NCBI GenBank assembly: GCA_030674475.1
Contig: JAUSCZ010000017.1
Span: 110,755 to 174,754, forward strand
Length of the DNA stretch: 64,000 bases
Source: Candidatus Omnitrophota bacterium
GTDB taxonomy: Bacteria > Omnitrophota > Gorgyraeia > Gygaellales > UBA12090
Direction: 5' to 3'
The translations under genes were made by a program, and so were the position numbers. Within the stretch, counting starts at the first letter, position 1. Each line of letters starts with the position of its first letter. Shown one piece after another: positions 53,582 through 58,750 of this stretch. The notes under the pieces were generated by a model. That model searched no databases. It worked only from the letters and a program-made list of their open reading frames with translations, and was not told where the DNA came from.

Positions 53582-54510
53582 CTTAACGCGAGGCCTAAAG
53601 CTACGGTAAAAATATTTTTCTTAGGTTTAAATTCTTCTAAATTCAGATTCTGATCAACCGCTACTCCGGAAAGGATATCAAAACTATCCACCGGTAAATT
53701 CAACTGATGACTCAAAAAATTCAACGTATCCTGAGAATAACTTCCCCCCCCGCTTAACAATAACTTCTCCACCGGCCTGCCATTTTGATTTTCATAATAA
53801 TCAATAGAAGTGGTGATTTCAGCAGACAGGCCGGCCAGGGCCGAGCCCTTCACCCCAAAGGAAATATCCCGGCTAAACCTCAAGGCTCCGCTGTCAATAA
53901 TCGCCATATTAGTAGTCTGGGCCCCGATATTAAGCAAGGCTATGGTTTTTTCTTTGACTGAAGCATCCGAGACGCGATAGCTTTTAGCAAAGATGTTAGC
54001 CAGGCAAAAACAATCTACATCAATAATTTTAGGGACAAATCCGGCCTTCTCTAATAAGCCCAGACGCTCCTGAAGGATTACTTTCTTGATTGCCGCCAAG
54101 ACAATCAGCATCTTGCTATTTTCAAAATTATCTTTTATTATGGCGCAGTCTAAAACCACTTCCTCCAAAGGAAAAGGAATATATTCTTTGGCCTCAAATT
54201 GCATCGCGTTTTTAAGCTCATTCATAGTCATCCTGGGCCAGCTAAGATAACGCGTTACCACCGACTGTCCGGAAACCGAAATATTAACCTGGCGTCCGGC
54301 TAATTTCTGGGATTTTAAAAAATCGCTGAGTGAGTTTCCCAAATCCGCGCCCGGGGTCAGCTCCACATAAGAAAATCTCTTGAGAATCTTTTCTTTGCCT
54401 TTTTTTTCCAACTCAATCAACTTAAGGCTGGAACTTCCGATGTCTAAGCCGATGGAAGGCTCCTGTTTAAGCAAAAAATCGGGGATTTTAATTTTCTTTA
54501 AGAAATCCAT
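53578..54510 (-). CDS. pilM: Type IV pilus assembly ATPase-fold protein PilM.
   Basis: An actin-like fold is present, with the N-terminal IGLDIGSSSLKLIE motif. Confidence 0.75.
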   Translation of the reverse strand: MDFLKKIKIPDFLLKQEPSIGLDIGSSSLKLIELEKKGKEKILKRFSYVELTPGADLGNSLSDFLKSQKLAGRQVNISVSGQSVVTRYLSWPRMTMNELKNAMQFEAKEYIPFPLEEVVLDCAIIKDNFENSKMLIVLAAIKKVILQERLGLLEKAGFVPKIIDVDCFCLANIFAKSYRVSDASVKEKTIALLNIGAQTTNMAIIDSGALRFSRDISFGVKGSALAGLSAEITTSIDYYENQNGRPVEKLLLSGGGSYSQDTLNFLSHQLNLPVDSFDILSGVAVDQNLNLEEFKPKKNIFTVALGLALR

Positions 54511-54589
54511 TTCATAAAATTATACGCTGATTGCCGCTTTAACGCAAGGATTTTCATAAGTAATCTCGGGATAGCGGCATAAATGCCGC

Positions 54590-54795
54590 CGCTACCTATG
54601 CCTGTAGCGGTGCGATTTATCGCACCCTTAAGCCGCTTAGGCAAGCTGTATAAATTTACAGTTCGGATAGGCTGGACATTCTTGTCGTGCCACCGGGGCG
54701 GGGTTACCTGCCTTGCCGACAGGCAGGGAAAACCCAGTCTATCCGGCTTTCAATATAGGGGCAGGTTCTGAACCTGCCCCTACTGAACGATTATT
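54590..54795 (+). ncRNA. Candidate small structured RNA. A family-1 palindrome at 54606-54627 is followed by nested stems and a terminator-like hairpin AGGGGCAGGTT-CTG-AACCTGCCCCT followed by a T-rich run.
   Basis: GGATAGGCTGG at 54662-54672 pairs with CCAGTCTATCC at 54745-54756. The inner hairpin is ACCTGCC-TTGCCGAC-AGGCAGG. The terminal hairpin is at 54759-54783, followed by ACTGAACGATTATTTT. Confidence 0.3.
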
Positions 54796-54801
54796 TTAGA
54801 A

Positions 54802-55818
54802 TTAATCAAGGCCATAGGGATTCTGGGTGTCATCCCAGGAGGTTATCTGCGGAGTGCCCACCAAATTCAGAGCCTCTATCGCGTCCATATAGGCCTGATT
54901 ATAGGTAACATTGGCGTTTCCGTTTAGCTCGGCTTCTTCTCCCGCCCAAACCCCGCCGTTTACGTTTAAATTTCCCGCTCCTCCGTTAACATCAAAGTCA
55001 CCGCGGGTGTAAATCACGCCTTCAATCGTCCCGACTCCATTAACGCTGGCTTCTTCCACGGCATCCGGATTAGTAAGCACATCACCAACCACCACAAAAA
55101 AACCTCCCACGGTTCCGATGTTTCCATTAAGGCTTAAGTCTCCCTCAATATACACAATATTAGGCACTCCGGCCGAATACCAAAAAGAACTGGGGAAGGC
55201 TTCACTTCCGGTTGCCTGGTTAACCAGTTTAGGGCCGTCTTCCACATACACATTATTCTGGGCACTGCTTAAATCGCGCAGCTCCTGAAAATCAAAACGA
55301 GCCAAAGGGGTTATTGAAGAATCTTCGGTTACTGTTCCGGTTATATGATTTTGCGAATACTCAAGCTCATCTCCATAAATCACATTTCCGTTAACCGTAT
55401 AGGAGTTTCCATTTAAATCCACCTCTCCTGCCGAGTAGATGGCGTTATCGTAAAAATTAGCAGGGATGTCTTTGGATATTTCTACCTGAATCGCCCGGCT
55501 GGAGCGCGGAGCGCCGCCGGAAGGAACCTCGCCGGTTGAGACCACAATTTTATCCGAGCCACTAGTGCTTATCTGCGCGGAGAACTCCCCGGCTCCGAGT
55601 TCAGTGGCGCTGACCGAGGTAGCGTCATAATCATTTCTTAGCGCGTATAATGCCTGGTTTACGCCGGCCTCAGCCAGCCAAAAAGCCTGGGTAGACTCAA
55701 CATACTGCTGGGCCAAAGAGCGTTCAGAAACGCTTTTATTAAATATGGCCACACCCAAAATGGTTAATACCACTATAACCAAAAAGATATAGATTAAAAC
55801 CGCTCCTTTTTTATCCAT
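54802..55818 (-). CDS. PilX N-terminal domain-containing pilus assembly protein.
   Basis: The N-terminal TM helix plus ...AFWLAEAGVNQALYAL matches the PilX_N pattern. Confidence 0.55.
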   Translation of the reverse strand: MDKKGAVLIYIFLVIVVLTILGVAIFNKSVSERSLAQQYVESTQAFWLAEAGVNQALYALRNDYDATSVSATELGAGEFSAQISTSGSDKIVVSTGEVPSGGAPRSSRAIQVEISKDIPANFYDNAIYSAGEVDLNGNSYTVNGNVIYGDELEYSQNHITGTVTEDSSITPLARFDFQELRDLSSAQNNVYVEDGPKLVNQATGSEAFPSSFWYSAGVPNIVYIEGDLSLNGNIGTVGGFFVVVGDVLTNPDAVEEASVNGVGTIEGVIYTRGDFDVNGGAGNLNVNGGVWAGEEAELNGNANVTYNQAYMDAIEALNLVGTPQITSWDDTQNPYGLD

Positions 55819-56365
55819 TTCTTAACCTCACCTGTTCTTTGAGGGAAAAATTCAAATCCGCGCCGTAAACCGATTTTCCCAAATCCAACTGAATAATAAG
55901 GACATCACCGCTCAGAGAAAAATTAACCGTTTCCACATCCCCGGACAATATCTTTTCAGTTCCCGCGGGATATTCCCGGATAAGTTGATTACTTTCTAGA
56001 TAATAACTAATCGTTCCCCCTGCCTCAACTGTGGTAAAGTCTAATTGCGCGCTATTGCCGCCGTCAGCAGGCTGGGTAATGCCCGCGGAACTGCTCTCCC
56101 TGACTTCCCGAATCATTCCATCCATAGCCAGGCGCGCCTGCTGTTGAAGCTCAACCTTACCCACATCCGAATGCCAAGCCTTTTGTCCGATGGTAAGCAC
56201 TGATAAAATAGCCATCGCCAATATGCTGAAGATCAAAACGCTGACCATAGTCTCGGCAAAGGTAAACCCCGTTAGAGATAGGTCGCCTTTAGGCGACCGT
56301 CTATAGCTACCCGTTATCTCTAACGGGGTAAAACCTTTATTCGTGATTTGTATTTTAGGCATCAA
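55811..56365 (-). CDS. Minor pseudopilin (prepilin-type N-terminal cleavage/methylation domain) with a duplicated cleavage motif.
   Basis: Both KGFTPLEI and LSLTGFTFAE precede the hydrophobic helix. They are encoded by the arms of an inverted-repeat cassette at 56258-56345. Confidence 0.55.
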   Translation of the reverse strand: MMPKIQITNKGFTPLEITGSYRRSPKGDLSLTGFTFAETMVSVLIFSILAMAILSVLTIGQKAWHSDVGKVELQQQARLAMDGMIREVRESSSAGITQPADGGNSAQLDFTTVEAGGTISYYLESNQLIREYPAGTEKILSGDVETVNFSLSGDVLIIQLDLGKSVYGADLNFSLKEQVRLRNG

Positions 56366-56912
56366 TATCGGTAAAAAGACTGGTTAAGCTTATAGTTTGG
56401 GCTCCCCCTAAGCGGTCCTGCCAGGAAACAGTTACTAAGACCCCCGCGGGATCCCCGGAAGCAGAAACTGTTGTTTCAATAGCCTCACTCTTTAAGACCG
56501 GCAGATTTTCGTTTTCTATTTCTGTCTCATCCCAATTCCAATTCCCGGCATTAATATTAGTCTCAATAGCATCAAAATTCGTATTTTTTATCTCCTCCAG
56601 CACAAACTGGGCCTGAGCTATGGCTGTAGCGCGATTACGGCTGGATTCATTCAAAAGCATACAACTGATAAAAAGAGACAGCAGTCCGGCTAAAGCGAAT
56701 ACCAAGATCGCCGCGGCCAAAATAACCTCAGCCAGGGTAAACCCCGTTAAAGACATCCTATCGCTTGCTAATTTCACTATAGTCTTTAATGGGGTAAACC
56801 CCGTTAGAGATAGGTTGCTAAAGGCAACCGTCGGACACCTTCGGTGTCCTATCTCTAACGGGGTGAACCCCTTGTTATTCAGCAAGTTACGCAAATTAAG
56901 CCTCTTATTCAT
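56355..56912 (-). CDS. Minor pseudopilin (prepilin-type N-terminal domain) with a triplicated cleavage motif.
   Basis: KGFTPLEI, SLTGFTPLKTI and SLTGFTLAEV precede the TM helix. They are encoded by repeat arms at 56744-56871. Confidence 0.55.
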   Translation of the reverse strand: MNKRLNLRNLLNNKGFTPLEIGHRRCPTVAFSNLSLTGFTPLKTIVKLASDRMSLTGFTLAEVILAAAILVFALAGLLSLFISCMLLNESSRNRATAIAQAQFVLEEIKNTNFDAIETNINAGNWNWDETEIENENLPVLKSEAIETTVSASGDPAGVLVTVSWQDRLGGAQTISLTSLFTDIDA

Positions 56913-57027
56913 AGTATATAATTATACGCTGAACACTCCATTCCGGCAAGGATTTTTAAACAAATGGGGGAGCTTGCGCCCCCCCACCTACACTGCTCTG
57001 CTATTGACAAAAAAAATCAAATCAACT

Positions 57028-57501
57028 CTAGGCACAATCAGCAGCGGTACAGATTTCAATCGCACCACCGGTGTTTACCTCATAACCATCATCTCCAGTA
57101 GTTGGCCTACTAACAGGATTTGCCAGAAGCTGGTAACCGGTCGCGGCGAATGTACAAGTAAAAGTATAACCACTGATATCATTACCGCAGAGTCTTGTTC
57201 CGGTAACGCTGCCCAGGGTATCTGCATCGCCTGTAGCAGCCACATCAACTGGGTACAATCCACCAGCTCCTTGCGCAGCAAAAGTCTCTGCCTCAGTAGC
57301 TATGGTTTTAAGATTTGCCTGGGCTGATGCCTGATTGGCTGCCCTTCTGGCATTAAGCAAACTGGGTATACCTACCGCGGCCAATAAGGCAATAATGGCC
57401 ACCACAATCATAATTTCGACTAAGGTAAAACCACTTCTTTTATTTTTGATAAACATAGTAATCCTCCCTCTTTCTTGCGAAGCTCTCCGAAGTATGTTCA
57501 A
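57028..57501 (-). CDS. Type IV pilin / GspG-like major pseudopilin.
   Basis: The motif KRSGFTLVEIMIVVAIIALLAAV is present. The true start is probably the internal Met (MFIKNKRSGFTL) at about 57456. Confidence 0.65.
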   Translation of the reverse strand: MNILRRASQERGRITMFIKNKRSGFTLVEIMIVVAIIALLAAVGIPSLLNARRAANQASAQANLKTIATEAETFAAQGAGGLYPVDVAATGDADTLGSVTGTRLCGNDISGYTFTCTFAATGYQLLANPVSRPTTGDDGYEVNTGGAIEICTAADCA

Positions 57502-57667
57502 AAAATGTGATTTTTTGACTTTGAAAATTCGGAGTATTTTTTTATATATAATAGATATAATAGATTGAACCCTTTGCTTCTTCTTTCCCTATCCTCCTTT
57601 CTGCCTTAAAGTAAGGCAATATATAACCATACTATTATCAACCCTGCGAAAAACCTTGTCAAGAGAA

Positions 57668-57774
57668 ATTTTAGGGTGAAATTTTAGGGTGGGTTTAGAA
57701 CCCTATTTTAGGGGTGGGTTTAGAACCCACCCCTACATGGGACAAATAAAAATGCCTATTGGCGCGCCAATAGG
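57668..57774. repeat. Tandem-repeat and hairpin region: (AAATTTTAGGGTG)x2, (GGGTTTAGAACCC)x2, and the 20-bp perfect palindrome CCTATTGGCGCGCCAATAGG at 57755-57774.
   Basis: Direct inspection shows the AGGGGTGGGTTTAGAACCCACCCCT hairpin at 57706-57730. The region lies in the rsmA-pilin intergenic gap. Confidence 0.4.
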
Positions 57775-57955
57775 CTCAGATGTTATTTATCACCCTTTGG
57801 CAACCCGGCTGTCCTTCGGCTTATTTTACGGTGAGGACCCTTGGCTTTGCGCCCCATCCTTACGGATGGTTTACTCTTATCAGTAGTGTATCTTTAATCA
57901 AAGTATACCACATATTCCCTAAAATGCAAATTTTTTTACCGCTGGGTCCACTTTG

Positions 57956-58750
57956 TCAATACTGGTTAACACGGTTCGCCAATCTGGCAAAATCGGCCAG
58001 GGATAAATCTTCGGCCCGTAGGTTTGGTTTGAGCTTGGCTGATTTTAAGCAATCCTTAAGTAAAGGCTCAGGCAGTAATGAACCCAGGCTGTTTTTGAGG
58101 GATTTGCGGCGCTGATTAAAGGCACAGCGGATAAGCTTAAAGAATAATTGCTCATCACTCACCCTTACTTTAGGTTTAGAGAGTATTTTTAACTTCAGAA
58201 AACAGGAATCCACCTTGGGCGCCGGCCAAAAAGAGGTATTCTTGATAGGAAAAAGAATCTGGGCATCAGAATAAAATTGGATAAAACAACTAATTGAGCC
58301 GTATTCCTTGCTTCCCGGCCCGGTGGTTAAACGCGAAGCCAATTCTTTCTGCAAGGTGAGGTACATCTCTTTGATTACTTCTCTATGCTCAAACAGATGG
58401 GTGATAATCGGGGTGGAGATATAATAAGGCAGGTTGGCGATAACTTTAAGTTTTTTATCATTTTTGATAAAATCGCGGATATCGAACTTTAAGATATCCT
58501 GATTAATCAGCTCAAAATTCTGATAGCCGGAAAATTTATCCCTTAAAATCGCGCAAAGAGATGAGTCTATTTCAACGGCAATAACTTTTTTGACCTTCTC
58601 CAAGAGGAACGATGTCAGCTCCCCCCTTCCCGGTCCTATCTCTAAAACAACATCGCTTTTTTTGAGATTACCCGACTGGATTATCTTTTCTTGGATATTT
58701 TTATCAACTAAGAAATTCTGGCCTAAGCTTTTCTTAGGTTTTGGGCGCAT
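57956..58750 (-). CDS. rsmA: 16S rRNA (adenine1518/1519-N6)-dimethyltransferase RsmA/KsgA.
   Basis: Motifs VLEIGPGRGELT and ANLPYYISTPI are present. Confidence 0.8.
   Translation of the reverse strand: MRPKPKKSLGQNFLVDKNIQEKIIQSGNLKKSDVVLEIGPGRGELTSFLLEKVKKVIAVEIDSSLCAILRDKFSGYQNFELINQDILKFDIRDFIKNDKKLKVIANLPYYISTPIITHLFEHREVIKEMYLTLQKELASRLTTGPGSKEYGSISCFIQFYSDAQILFPIKNTSFWPAPKVDSCFLKLKILSKPKVRVSDEQLFFKLIRCAFNQRRKSLKNSLGSLLPEPLLKDCLKSAKLKPNLRAEDLSLADFARLANRVNQY

Follow-up and report, generated by a model that had tools for sequence, protein, structure and literature searches.

Inverted-repeat cassettes in two minor pseudopilin genes

We analyzed a 64,000-nucleotide stretch of contig JAUSCZ010000017.1 from a Candidatus Omnitrophota bacterium (the window), in which two adjacent minus-strand genes for minor pseudopilins, one GspJ/PilW-like and one GspI/PilV-like, carry inverted-repeat cassettes within their 5' coding regions. 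A first-pass annotation had pointed to these cassettes, and both they and the translations quoted for the two open reading frames (ORFs) are present as described; the arm coordinates also hold, apart from the second arm of the first cassette, which lies at 56314-56338 rather than 56322-56345, a shift of about 8 nt. The cassettes resolve into three elements with terminal inverted repeats, element B in the GspJ-like gene and elements A and C in the GspI-like gene (Table 1). The 13-nt terminal repeats of elements A and B are 100% complementary. Elements A and C share a TAAA, the right duplication of C being the left duplication of A, with outer flank copies TAAA (56738-56741) on the C side and TGAA (56864-56867, matching at 3 of 4 positions) on the A side.

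The arms cluster tightly at this locus. Allowing up to 2 mismatches, TCTCTAACGGGGT has 6 matches in 64 kb (1.14 expected), all within one 600-bp stretch, a number reached in 1 of 100 shuffles. Exact matches of the 13-mer CCCCGTTAGAGAT number four in the window and are confined to the cassettes, and no copies beyond the six arms were found in the 64-kb window with 3 mismatches allowed. Two of the three prepilin-type genes in the window are occupied by cassettes, which lie nowhere else in it.

Counted with one copy of its target, element B adds 66 nt (22 codons), element A 69 nt (23 codons) and element C 57 nt (19 codons). Each insertion is a multiple of three bases and free of stops in the frame used, and the extra residues all lie upstream of the last G↓F site (the arrow marks the predicted prepilin peptidase cut). 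Pfam and NCBIfam profiles place the prepilin N-terminal motif at residues 33-54 of ORF 55811..56365 and 57-78 of ORF 56355..56912, with GspJ/ComGF-type resemblance in the former and GspI/XpsI-type resemblance in the latter, every match falling under the curated cut-offs; Gly(-1), Phe(+1) and Glu(+5) followed by a hydrophobic helix are present in both (SLTG↓FTFAETMVSVLIFSILAMAIL and SLTG↓FTLAEVILAAAILVFALAGLL). As encoded, neither gene has the short basic leader of a class III signal peptide, the predicted leaders being 32 aa in the GspJ-like gene and 57 aa in the GspI-like gene. Excising the cassettes with one TTTA copy in silico restores short, ordinary prepilin leaders in both, of 10 aa (MPKIQITNKG↓FTFAE) and 15 aa (MNKRLNLRNLLNNKG↓FTLAEV), respectively. 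The GspJ-like gene, contained in ORF 55811..56365, starts at an ATG at 56362 that overlaps the stop of the upstream gene, takes its Gly(-1) codon from the terminal GGG of element B, and encodes a protein identical to a hypothetical protein of a Candidatus Omnitrophota metagenome-assembled genome (MAG).

The apparent series of cleavage motifs in these leaders can be traced to the junctions. Because elements with CC...GG ends enter GG-TTTA-CC with TTTA duplicated, Gly-Phe-Thr motifs arise in tandem: the left junction becomes GG-TTTA-CC-CCG-TTA-GAG (G F T P L E), the right junction ACG-GGG-TTT-ACC (T G F T), and the distal and proximal junctions accordingly read GFTPLEI and SLTG↓FT. The upstream pseudo-sites (GFTPLE) precede charged residues and not a pilin-type hydrophobic helix. 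Judged from these junctions, the 'tandem prepilin sites' are a by-product of insertion geometry, and selection for extra sites need not be invoked.

Table 1. Elements, genes and predicted sites at the pseudopilin locus (window coordinates)
Feature	Position	Strand	Details
Element A, 65 bp	56799..56863		terminal repeats 56799-56811 and 56851-56863; 39-nt interior with two 7-bp hairpins, 56813-56829 and 56833-56849
Element B, 62 bp	56267..56328		terminal repeats CCCCGTTAGAGAT at 56267-56279 and 56316-56328; inner hairpin GGTCGCC-TTTA-GGCGACC at 56281-56298
Element C, 53 bp	56742..56794		diverged ends CCCCGTTAAAGAC (56742-56754) and GTCTTTAATGGGG (56782-56794)
Target-site duplication of element B	56263..56266		second copy 56329-56332; TAAA on plus strand, TTTA on coding strand
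TAAA common to elements C and A	56795..56798		right duplication of C, left duplication of A
Inverted repeat I2 (element A)	56791-56814 / 56848-56871		complementarity 92%
Inverted repeat I8 (element B)	56266-56280 / 56315-56329		complementarity 100%
Inverted repeat I4 (element C)	56735-56754 / 56782-56801		complementarity 85%
Predicted prepilin peptidase site, gene 55811..56362	56264..56269	-	Gly(-1) codon 56269-56267, Phe(+1) codon 56266-56264
Predicted prepilin peptidase site, gene 56355..56912	56739..56744	-	Gly(-1) codon 56744-56742, Phe(+1) codon 56741-56739
GspJ/PilW-like minor pseudopilin gene	55811..56362	-	element B in leader; ORF, translation, profile matches
GspI/PilV-like minor pseudopilin gene	56355..56912	-	elements A and C in leader; ORF, translation, profile matches
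Promoter-like site (TTGCCG, 17 nt, TATAAT)	56921..56949	-	consensus match only; ends 8 nt upstream of ATG 56912
Major pilin gene	57501..57028	-	start probably at MFIKNKRSG↓FTLVEIM
PilX/GspK-like gene	55818..54802	-	
pilM and pilN	after the PilX/GspK-like gene in minus-strand gene order	-	

Empty and filled sites in orthologues

We compared 20 orthologues of the GspJ-like protein (42-100% identity), all of which are collinear from G↓FTFAE onward and whose leaders hold 0, 1 or 2 cassettes at the same G-F-T codons. Cassette-free leaders include MKINNKG↓FTFAE and MSINFKINKYGG↓FTFAE, and a leader with two cassettes reads GFTPLE..SLTGFTPSE..SLTGFTFAE. The orthologue comparison proposed in the first-pass annotation thus recovers genes without a cassette, and the orthologues do not all share the same duplicated leader. 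At the DNA level, locus L124 offers an empty site with a single TTTA (AAGGGGTTTACCTTTGCC, read as AATAAGGGGTTTACCTTTGCCGAG), and the filled site of the window reads AATAAAGGTTTTACC[CCGTTAGAG...CTCTAACGG]GGTTTACCTTTGCCGAG. Locus L123 carries two elements in tandem at the same point of its GspJ-like gene.

The GspI-like site is equally variable. In the window it holds two elements (A and C), and L123 and L055 hold one each, of the two-hairpin type like A, with the interior inverted relative to A (6 mismatches when aligned inverted, 13 when aligned directly); L120 has a different element there, with ends CCCCGTTAGAAGC. Finding different elements and orientations at one position argues that the site has been hit repeatedly.

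Element B matches at 62/62 positions in the window and L123, while the adjoining mature coding sequence is 87.7% identical, and at the gene-wide rate zero differences would have a probability of 3e-4. Either these copies are younger than the split between the two lineages, a hot spot having received a new insertion or undergone conversion, or the sequence of the cassette is constrained. For the mature part of the GspJ-like gene, comparison of the window with L123, in each of which element B is present, gives a ratio of nonsynonymous to synonymous substitution (dN/dS) of 0.11 (dS 0.49), and comparison with L120 gives 0.14; the GspI-like gene gives 0.34-0.40. These ratios indicate that purifying selection continues on the host genes while the cassettes are in place.

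Other kinds of variation were seen in the same orthologues. At ~4085-4115 of L120, and likewise in L121 and L122, the GspJ-like leader contains four tandem GCTATCC heptamers, which in L120 form part of a long leader of another kind (MFKKAFSRERLTYSQNRVYSKMLSAIRYPLSAKEG↓FTFAE); gain or loss of heptamers would shift the frame, so that phase variation is conceivable. Orthologues P0006 and P0012 have another, unrelated leader extension (VVRNSAIFPSPFSSPRRGRGQGEGDFRN), and the leader of this gene seems to gather insertions of several kinds. In five further orthologues (P0011, P0013, P0014, P0016 and P0017) we observed long C-terminal Asp/Glu/His/Gly tails (...DDDDDDHGHGHDD...), which are absent from the GspJ-like protein of the window.

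A family of short elements across phyla

We scanned one genome per species for the pattern CCGTTAGAGAT-N18-48-ATCTCTAACGG and found at least 126 elements at a minimum of 119 loci; the counts given here for short elements rest on the listed matches (126 elements, 119 loci). Hosts among these matches include Omnitrophota, many Patescibacteria lineages, Planctomycetota, Nitrospirota, Elusimicrobia, Cloacimonadota and others. Three contigs (L008, L034 and L042) belong to MAG JAIWAR01, labelled as a Methanosarcinales archaeon, and represent either a real archaeal host or mis-binned bacterial contigs. An element was found on 1 viral contig, and on that ground we set aside phages as the vehicle.

The terminal inverted repeats of the family are 13 nt long (YCCCGTTAGAGAT / ATCTCTAACGGGR), two bases longer than the ends used in the scan, and the two added positions are complementary in 122/125 and 118/125 copies. 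The 4 nt flanking the elements form direct repeats in 78 of 124 copies and an inverted repeat in 1, with a flank consensus of T-N-N-A, TTTA being the most frequent, a weak G ahead and a weak C behind. From this arrangement (TNNA-CCCCGTTAGAGAT...ATCTCTAACGGGG-TNNA) we identify the flanking direct repeat, as read from the aligned flanks, as a 4-bp target-site duplication.

Between these ends, the short elements (53-78 bp in all) hold interiors of 18-48 nt that fall into mutually unrelated types and are unrelated to pilin sequence: two 7-bp hairpins, a 33-nt stretch, pyrimidine- or purine-rich, one orientation of which codes for a Lys/Glu-rich peptide, and others. In the two-hairpin interiors, both sides have changed in 12 of 14 pairs, and pairing holds in 88.5% of cells, compared with 68% in shuffles and 35-45% with slid partners, in a set of sequences that had been chosen for folding; such covariation could come from selection on structure or from one arm having been copied off the other. 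Longer elements with the same ends were few in the fetched loci, amounting to just 122-, 231- and 290-bp cases.

Frame preservation and insertion into genes

Counting the element together with one copy of the duplication, insert length is divisible by three in 85 of 126 copies (p = 6e-15). We further asked which copies lie deep in an ORF, defined as more than 25 codons inside an ORF of at least 150 codons after in-silico excision. These comprise 24 of the 85 copies with a multiple of three vs. 0 of the 41 others (p = 4e-5), and 22 of the 24 use the two codon phases in which the repeat is stop-free, the third phase carrying a stop (CCC-CGT-TAG). Genes hosting elements include uvrA (L100), ychF (L102), ybeY (L030) and the start of miaA (L032), alongside intergenic copies. 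On this reading of lengths and phases, the elements show adaptation to coding DNA.

The G-F-T codons of other prepilin genes hold eleven more copies (two in L025, three in L057, and one each in L055, L081, L086, L097, L105 and L118), and the prepilin site is strongly over-represented among insertions. We attribute this to the fit of the site to the preferred target G-TNNA-C, together with the tolerability of insertions in the leader.

A GIY-YIG nuclease gene between the same ends

The 290-bp element, in L064, has the same ends and a TTAA duplication and encodes a GIY-YIG protein (PF01541, E = 1.2e-14). A second nuclease-bearing case lies at the edge of L119, and L127, L128 and L136 likewise show the association. 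Homologues of the nuclease fall into 5769 clusters at E <= 1e-5, the best 120 of which are 74-86% identical and come from WOR-3, Planctomycetota, Scalinduaceae, Omnitrophota and others; among these 120, 71 are exactly 86 aa long, 74 end in ..RFLSLTG and 105 contain SLTG. The closest relatives of solved structure are the UPF0213 proteins 1zg2 (E = 9e-8) and 1ywl.

Gene and repeat are closely interlocked. The C-terminal SLTG of the nuclease is encoded by the terminal repeat (TCT-CTA-ACG-GGG), and the right flank starts with TGA or TAA, supplying the stop codon, in 49 of 70 nuclease-bearing copies. Of 80 metagenome loci, 75 have the nuclease ORF bracketed by both repeats, and the modal length is 279 bp. 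Across nuclease units, repeat positions 2-10 are essentially invariant (four one-sided changes) and positions 1, 12 and 13 vary; where a position varies, it has changed identically at both ends in 42 of 57 cases. The matched variation of the ends, the bracketing and the repeat-encoded C-terminus together argue that protein and ends belong together and move between phyla, and they make the 86-aa nuclease a candidate partner that may mobilize the short elements as well.

Some nuclease units show additional features. Eight of them, drawn from different samples (L153, L158, L163, L164, L165, L169, L193 and L198), have a common left flank, TAGG(G/A)TTGGA, with differing right flanks, and may be nested in another repeat or have met a favored landing sequence. 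In L166 (970-1268) the inverted repeat runs 10 nt past the usual 13 (GTGCCATTCA...TGAATGGCAC).

Expression context of the pilin genes

The promoter-like site ahead of the GspI-like gene suggests, as a consensus match, that the minor-pilin transcript begins at or just before the original start codon and that the message is possibly leaderless. A terminator-like hairpin (56967-56985, minus strand) directly follows the major pilin gene, and the minor pilins may form a separate transcription unit. The placement of these two signals is consistent with the original start codon being in use.

About 300 nt upstream of the major pilin gene we observed a match to the c-di-GMP-I-GGC riboswitch aptamer (57795-57884, minus strand; 58.2 bits, gathering score 59, E = 2.7e-12) with an intrinsic-terminator-like hairpin after it (57775-57754, minus strand), and pilus expression here may be under cyclic di-GMP (c-di-GMP) control. 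A 235-aa antisense ORF (56620-57327, plus strand) crosses the cassettes and reads their repeats as NPVRD and ISNG; it is almost certainly spurious, though gene callers could call it.

Proposed mechanism and alternative explanations

Taken as a whole, the evidence makes it likely that the cassettes are small non-autonomous mobile elements inserted in prepilin codons, disposed of with the leader and mobilized by the nuclease. The frame-keeping, foldback or MITE-like insertion (miniature inverted-repeat transposable element) that had been the main reading in the first-pass annotation is borne out by the polymorphism among orthologues, the empty site in L124, the terminal repeats with their 4-bp duplication, and the family in unrelated genes and phyla. 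Under the mechanism we propose, three copies of a 53-65 bp element would have entered TTTA within GGN-TTT-ACC (Gly-Phe-Thr), duplicating TTTA, and the genes would have stayed open as the additions are multiples of three with no stop in the frame used. The simplest reading is that the cassettes are translated, their residues forming part of an unusually long leader, and that prepilin peptidase would then remove the extended leader and leave a normal mature pseudopilin. The leader would act as a tolerated 'safe harbour', with GG-TTTA-CC also lying near the preferred target. The 86-aa nuclease would recognize the repeat, probably as a single-stranded DNA hairpin by analogy with the Ssn nucleases discussed below, and mobilize its own unit along with the short elements.

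Several observations weigh against this explanation. Translation through the cassettes and the mature N-termini are deduced from sequence. The N_methyl scores of the two proteins are 14.9 and 14.7 bits against a Pfam cut-off of 21.2, TIGR02532 is also below its cut-off, and the leaders, at 32 and 57 aa, are long by the standard of type IV pilin-like proteins. On the side of the nuclease, there is no GIY-YIG gene within the 64-kb window, a perfect 4-bp direct repeat is present in just 14 of 70 nuclease-bearing copies, and the interiors of the short elements cannot readily be derived from the nuclease unit by deletion. A GIY-YIG nuclease alone is not known for insertion with target duplication. 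Finally, the complete identity of element B in two lineages is also compatible with strong constraint on the cassette sequence, and such constraint would be a hint of function.

Could the cassettes instead be cis-regulatory RNA hairpins, acting on translation, mRNA stability or temperature response, with the real starts downstream? The folding prediction proposed in the first-pass annotation agrees with very stable structures: the two cassette regions have predicted folding energies of -87.5 and -51.1 kcal/mol (z = -5.6 and -4.6), far below shuffled sequences, 0 of 200 of which were as stable. An in-frame ATG inside element C (56756-56754, minus strand) would give a canonical-looking short leader, MSLTG↓FTLAEV, and both the two-sided changes that keep 12 of 14 inner-hairpin pairs intact and the identity of element B in diverged lineages could be taken as signs of a selected RNA. 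Downstream starts, however, find no support in gene 55811..56362, where the stretch from the cassette to the G↓F site lacks any ATG, GTG or TTG, nor in the GspI-like genes of L123 and L055, which have no start codon after the cassette, and the pre-cassette leader (MNK.LNLRN.LNN.G) is conserved in orthologues. Close orthologues are moreover cassette-free or carry unrelated cassettes, the same elements occur inside uvrA, ychF and ybeY and in intergenic DNA of many phyla, and the bias toward lengths divisible by three implies that the elements are translated. A search of Rfam (E up to 10, positions 54000-58500) gave nothing on the cassettes, the sole overlap being a chance-level Ysr100 match. We therefore regard a regulatory RNA as unlikely.

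Programmed inversion or recombination that varies the pilin N-terminus, or a choice among alternative peptidase sites, would find encouragement in the two-hairpin interior being oppositely oriented at the orthologous site in L123 and L055, in both orientations remaining open in frame, and in the three G-F-T-x-x-E-like motifs in series. Yet inversion would alter leader residues only and leave the mature protein the same, and the distal flanks, TTCA in the window vs. CCTG in L123 and L055, fit separate insertions and not a flip. The charged residues that follow the upstream GFTPLE pseudo-sites in place of a hydrophobic helix, and the mechanical origin of the motif duplication from target and end sequences, likewise speak against alternative processing, an idea from the first-pass annotation that we do not retain. 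No recombinase gene was seen adjoining the locus, although none was looked for. All told, this explanation strikes us as quite improbable. A purely local origin, in which template switching or inverted duplication of 5' pilin sequence produced immobile palindromes, takes its appeal from GGGGTTTACCCC, which is by itself nearly palindromic and whose arms overlap the pilin motif. Against it stand identical 13-nt ends with 4-bp direct repeats at a minimum of 119 loci, both within unrelated genes and between genes, in many phyla, the same ends bracketing a nuclease gene, and interiors unrelated to pilin sequence, and we find it scarcely credible.

Returning to mobile elements, we advance a broader proposal more tentatively, as plausible though somewhat short of probable: that the cassettes are members of a hitherto undescribed family of ultra-small mobile elements that spans phyla and is driven by an Ssn-like GIY-YIG nuclease. 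Its autonomous unit would be ~280 bp long and consist of the 13-nt ends and the 86-aa gene, with the C-terminus encoded by an end; its non-autonomous copies of 53-78 bp would be shaped for intragenic life, with lengths divisible by three and two stop-free frames in either orientation; and the prepilin leader would serve as a refuge in which the inserted peptide is cut off by the host's own prepilin peptidase.

These results offer an explanation of the odd 'tandem cleavage motifs' as a by-product of mobile DNA, and they caution annotators that long pilin leaders in these phyla can be insertions. They also suggest a possible survival route for selfish DNA in dense genomes, namely a peptide segment that the host removes anyway, and connect the short elements with a tiny GIY-YIG unit whose copies in different phyla are 74-86% identical.

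Comparison with known systems

The closest parallel comes from Neisseria meningitidis, whose SsnA (Chenal et al. 2025, PMC11893778) is a GIY-YIG protein of a single domain and 94 aa; it binds the hairpin repeat NTS, a subset of dRS3, as single-stranded DNA only and cuts a few bases upstream. Homologues of ssnA are repeat-flanked, an architecture its authors liken to an insertion sequence, and NTS lies inside genes in 2% of cases only (PMC11893778). Set beside SsnA by description, the 86-aa protein here is likewise a small single-domain GIY-YIG protein, its Y5, Y16 and E62 are spaced similarly to Y6, Y17 and E64, the catalytic residues mutated in SsnA (PMC11893778), and its gene lies between hairpin-forming inverted repeats that are also dispersed in many copies. 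There are also differences from Ssn systems. The published pattern of Ssn-related motifs (SRM), HGTCWYN(0-2)YYVSBRHN(0-5)WNVSBRGN(0-2)RNCYNB, gave 0 matches when searched for in the window and in 73 nuclease units taken with 60 nt on either side. The repeats here are genuine terminal inverted repeats bordered by outer 4-bp direct repeats, one repeat encodes the nuclease C-terminus, and the short non-coding derivatives are frequently intragenic and in frame; the hosts, too, differ, being Omnitrophota, Patescibacteria, Planctomycetota and others. The 2025 study left the mobility of nuclease-hairpin pairs open (PMC11893778), a question that the duplications and empty sites reported here make testable; if the broader proposal is true, they would be direct evidence, the first of its kind, that Ssn-type nuclease-hairpin systems transpose. 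Such nucleases are of practical interest as site-specific cutters of single-stranded DNA, for which the repeat would offer a new and sharply defined recognition sequence.

In their effect on genes, the elements resemble Rickettsia palindromic elements (RPEs; Ogata et al. 2000, 2002), which, as far as PMC10969869 describes them, are ~100-150 bp long and found in Rickettsia only. Measured against that description, both are palindromic repeats in frame in unrelated coding genes, adding a peptide and leaving the gene intact, whereas the elements here are 53-78 bp long, occur in several phyla, have a defined 13-nt end, a 4-bp duplication and ends in common with a nuclease gene, and, in pilin genes, sit in a segment expected to be cleaved off. 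With other bacterial MITEs, such as Correia elements, RUP and the Coxiella QMITE, for which occasional in-frame fusions are described (PMC10969869, PMC5896051), they share terminal inverted repeats, target-site duplication, a lack of coding capacity, many copies and insertion polymorphism. Unlike usual MITEs, they are much smaller, have a strong bias toward lengths divisible by three and mutually unrelated interiors, and their candidate partner is a GIY-YIG nuclease and not a DDE transposase.

REP/RAYT systems consist of extragenic palindromes with a GTAG head, no target duplication and an HUH/Y1 enzyme, and REP doublets form long hairpins. In REP/REPIN-RAYT systems, too, dispersed short palindromes flank the gene of a small nuclease, their presumed mover, a comparison drawn in PMC11893778. 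The elements here differ in being intragenic, in their 4-bp duplication and in their association with a GIY-YIG gene, and we rejected both REP/RAYT and IS200/IS605 as identifications, as these have no target duplication and a different enzyme. Integron attC sites were also considered: their core sites run 5'-RYYYAAC ... GTTRRRY-3', and the elements read GTTAGAG ... CTCTAAC on both strands, the opposite order, so that this candidate was rejected. Tn3-type ends were rejected because they start with GGGG vs. CCCC here, as were a tRNA-like fold and hammerhead-type small ribozymes, the stems being too long and conserved junction bases being absent.

Within an incomplete coverage of the literature, and as absence of evidence only, we found no published description of the repeat, of the nuclease unit or of mobile elements in prepilin leaders. 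By analogy with these systems, the cassettes are best described as MITE-like, Ssn-like and RPE-like at once; what is unusual about them is their tiny size, their frame-preserving design, their spread across phyla, the part of a nuclease that their repeat encodes, and their preference for prepilin codons.

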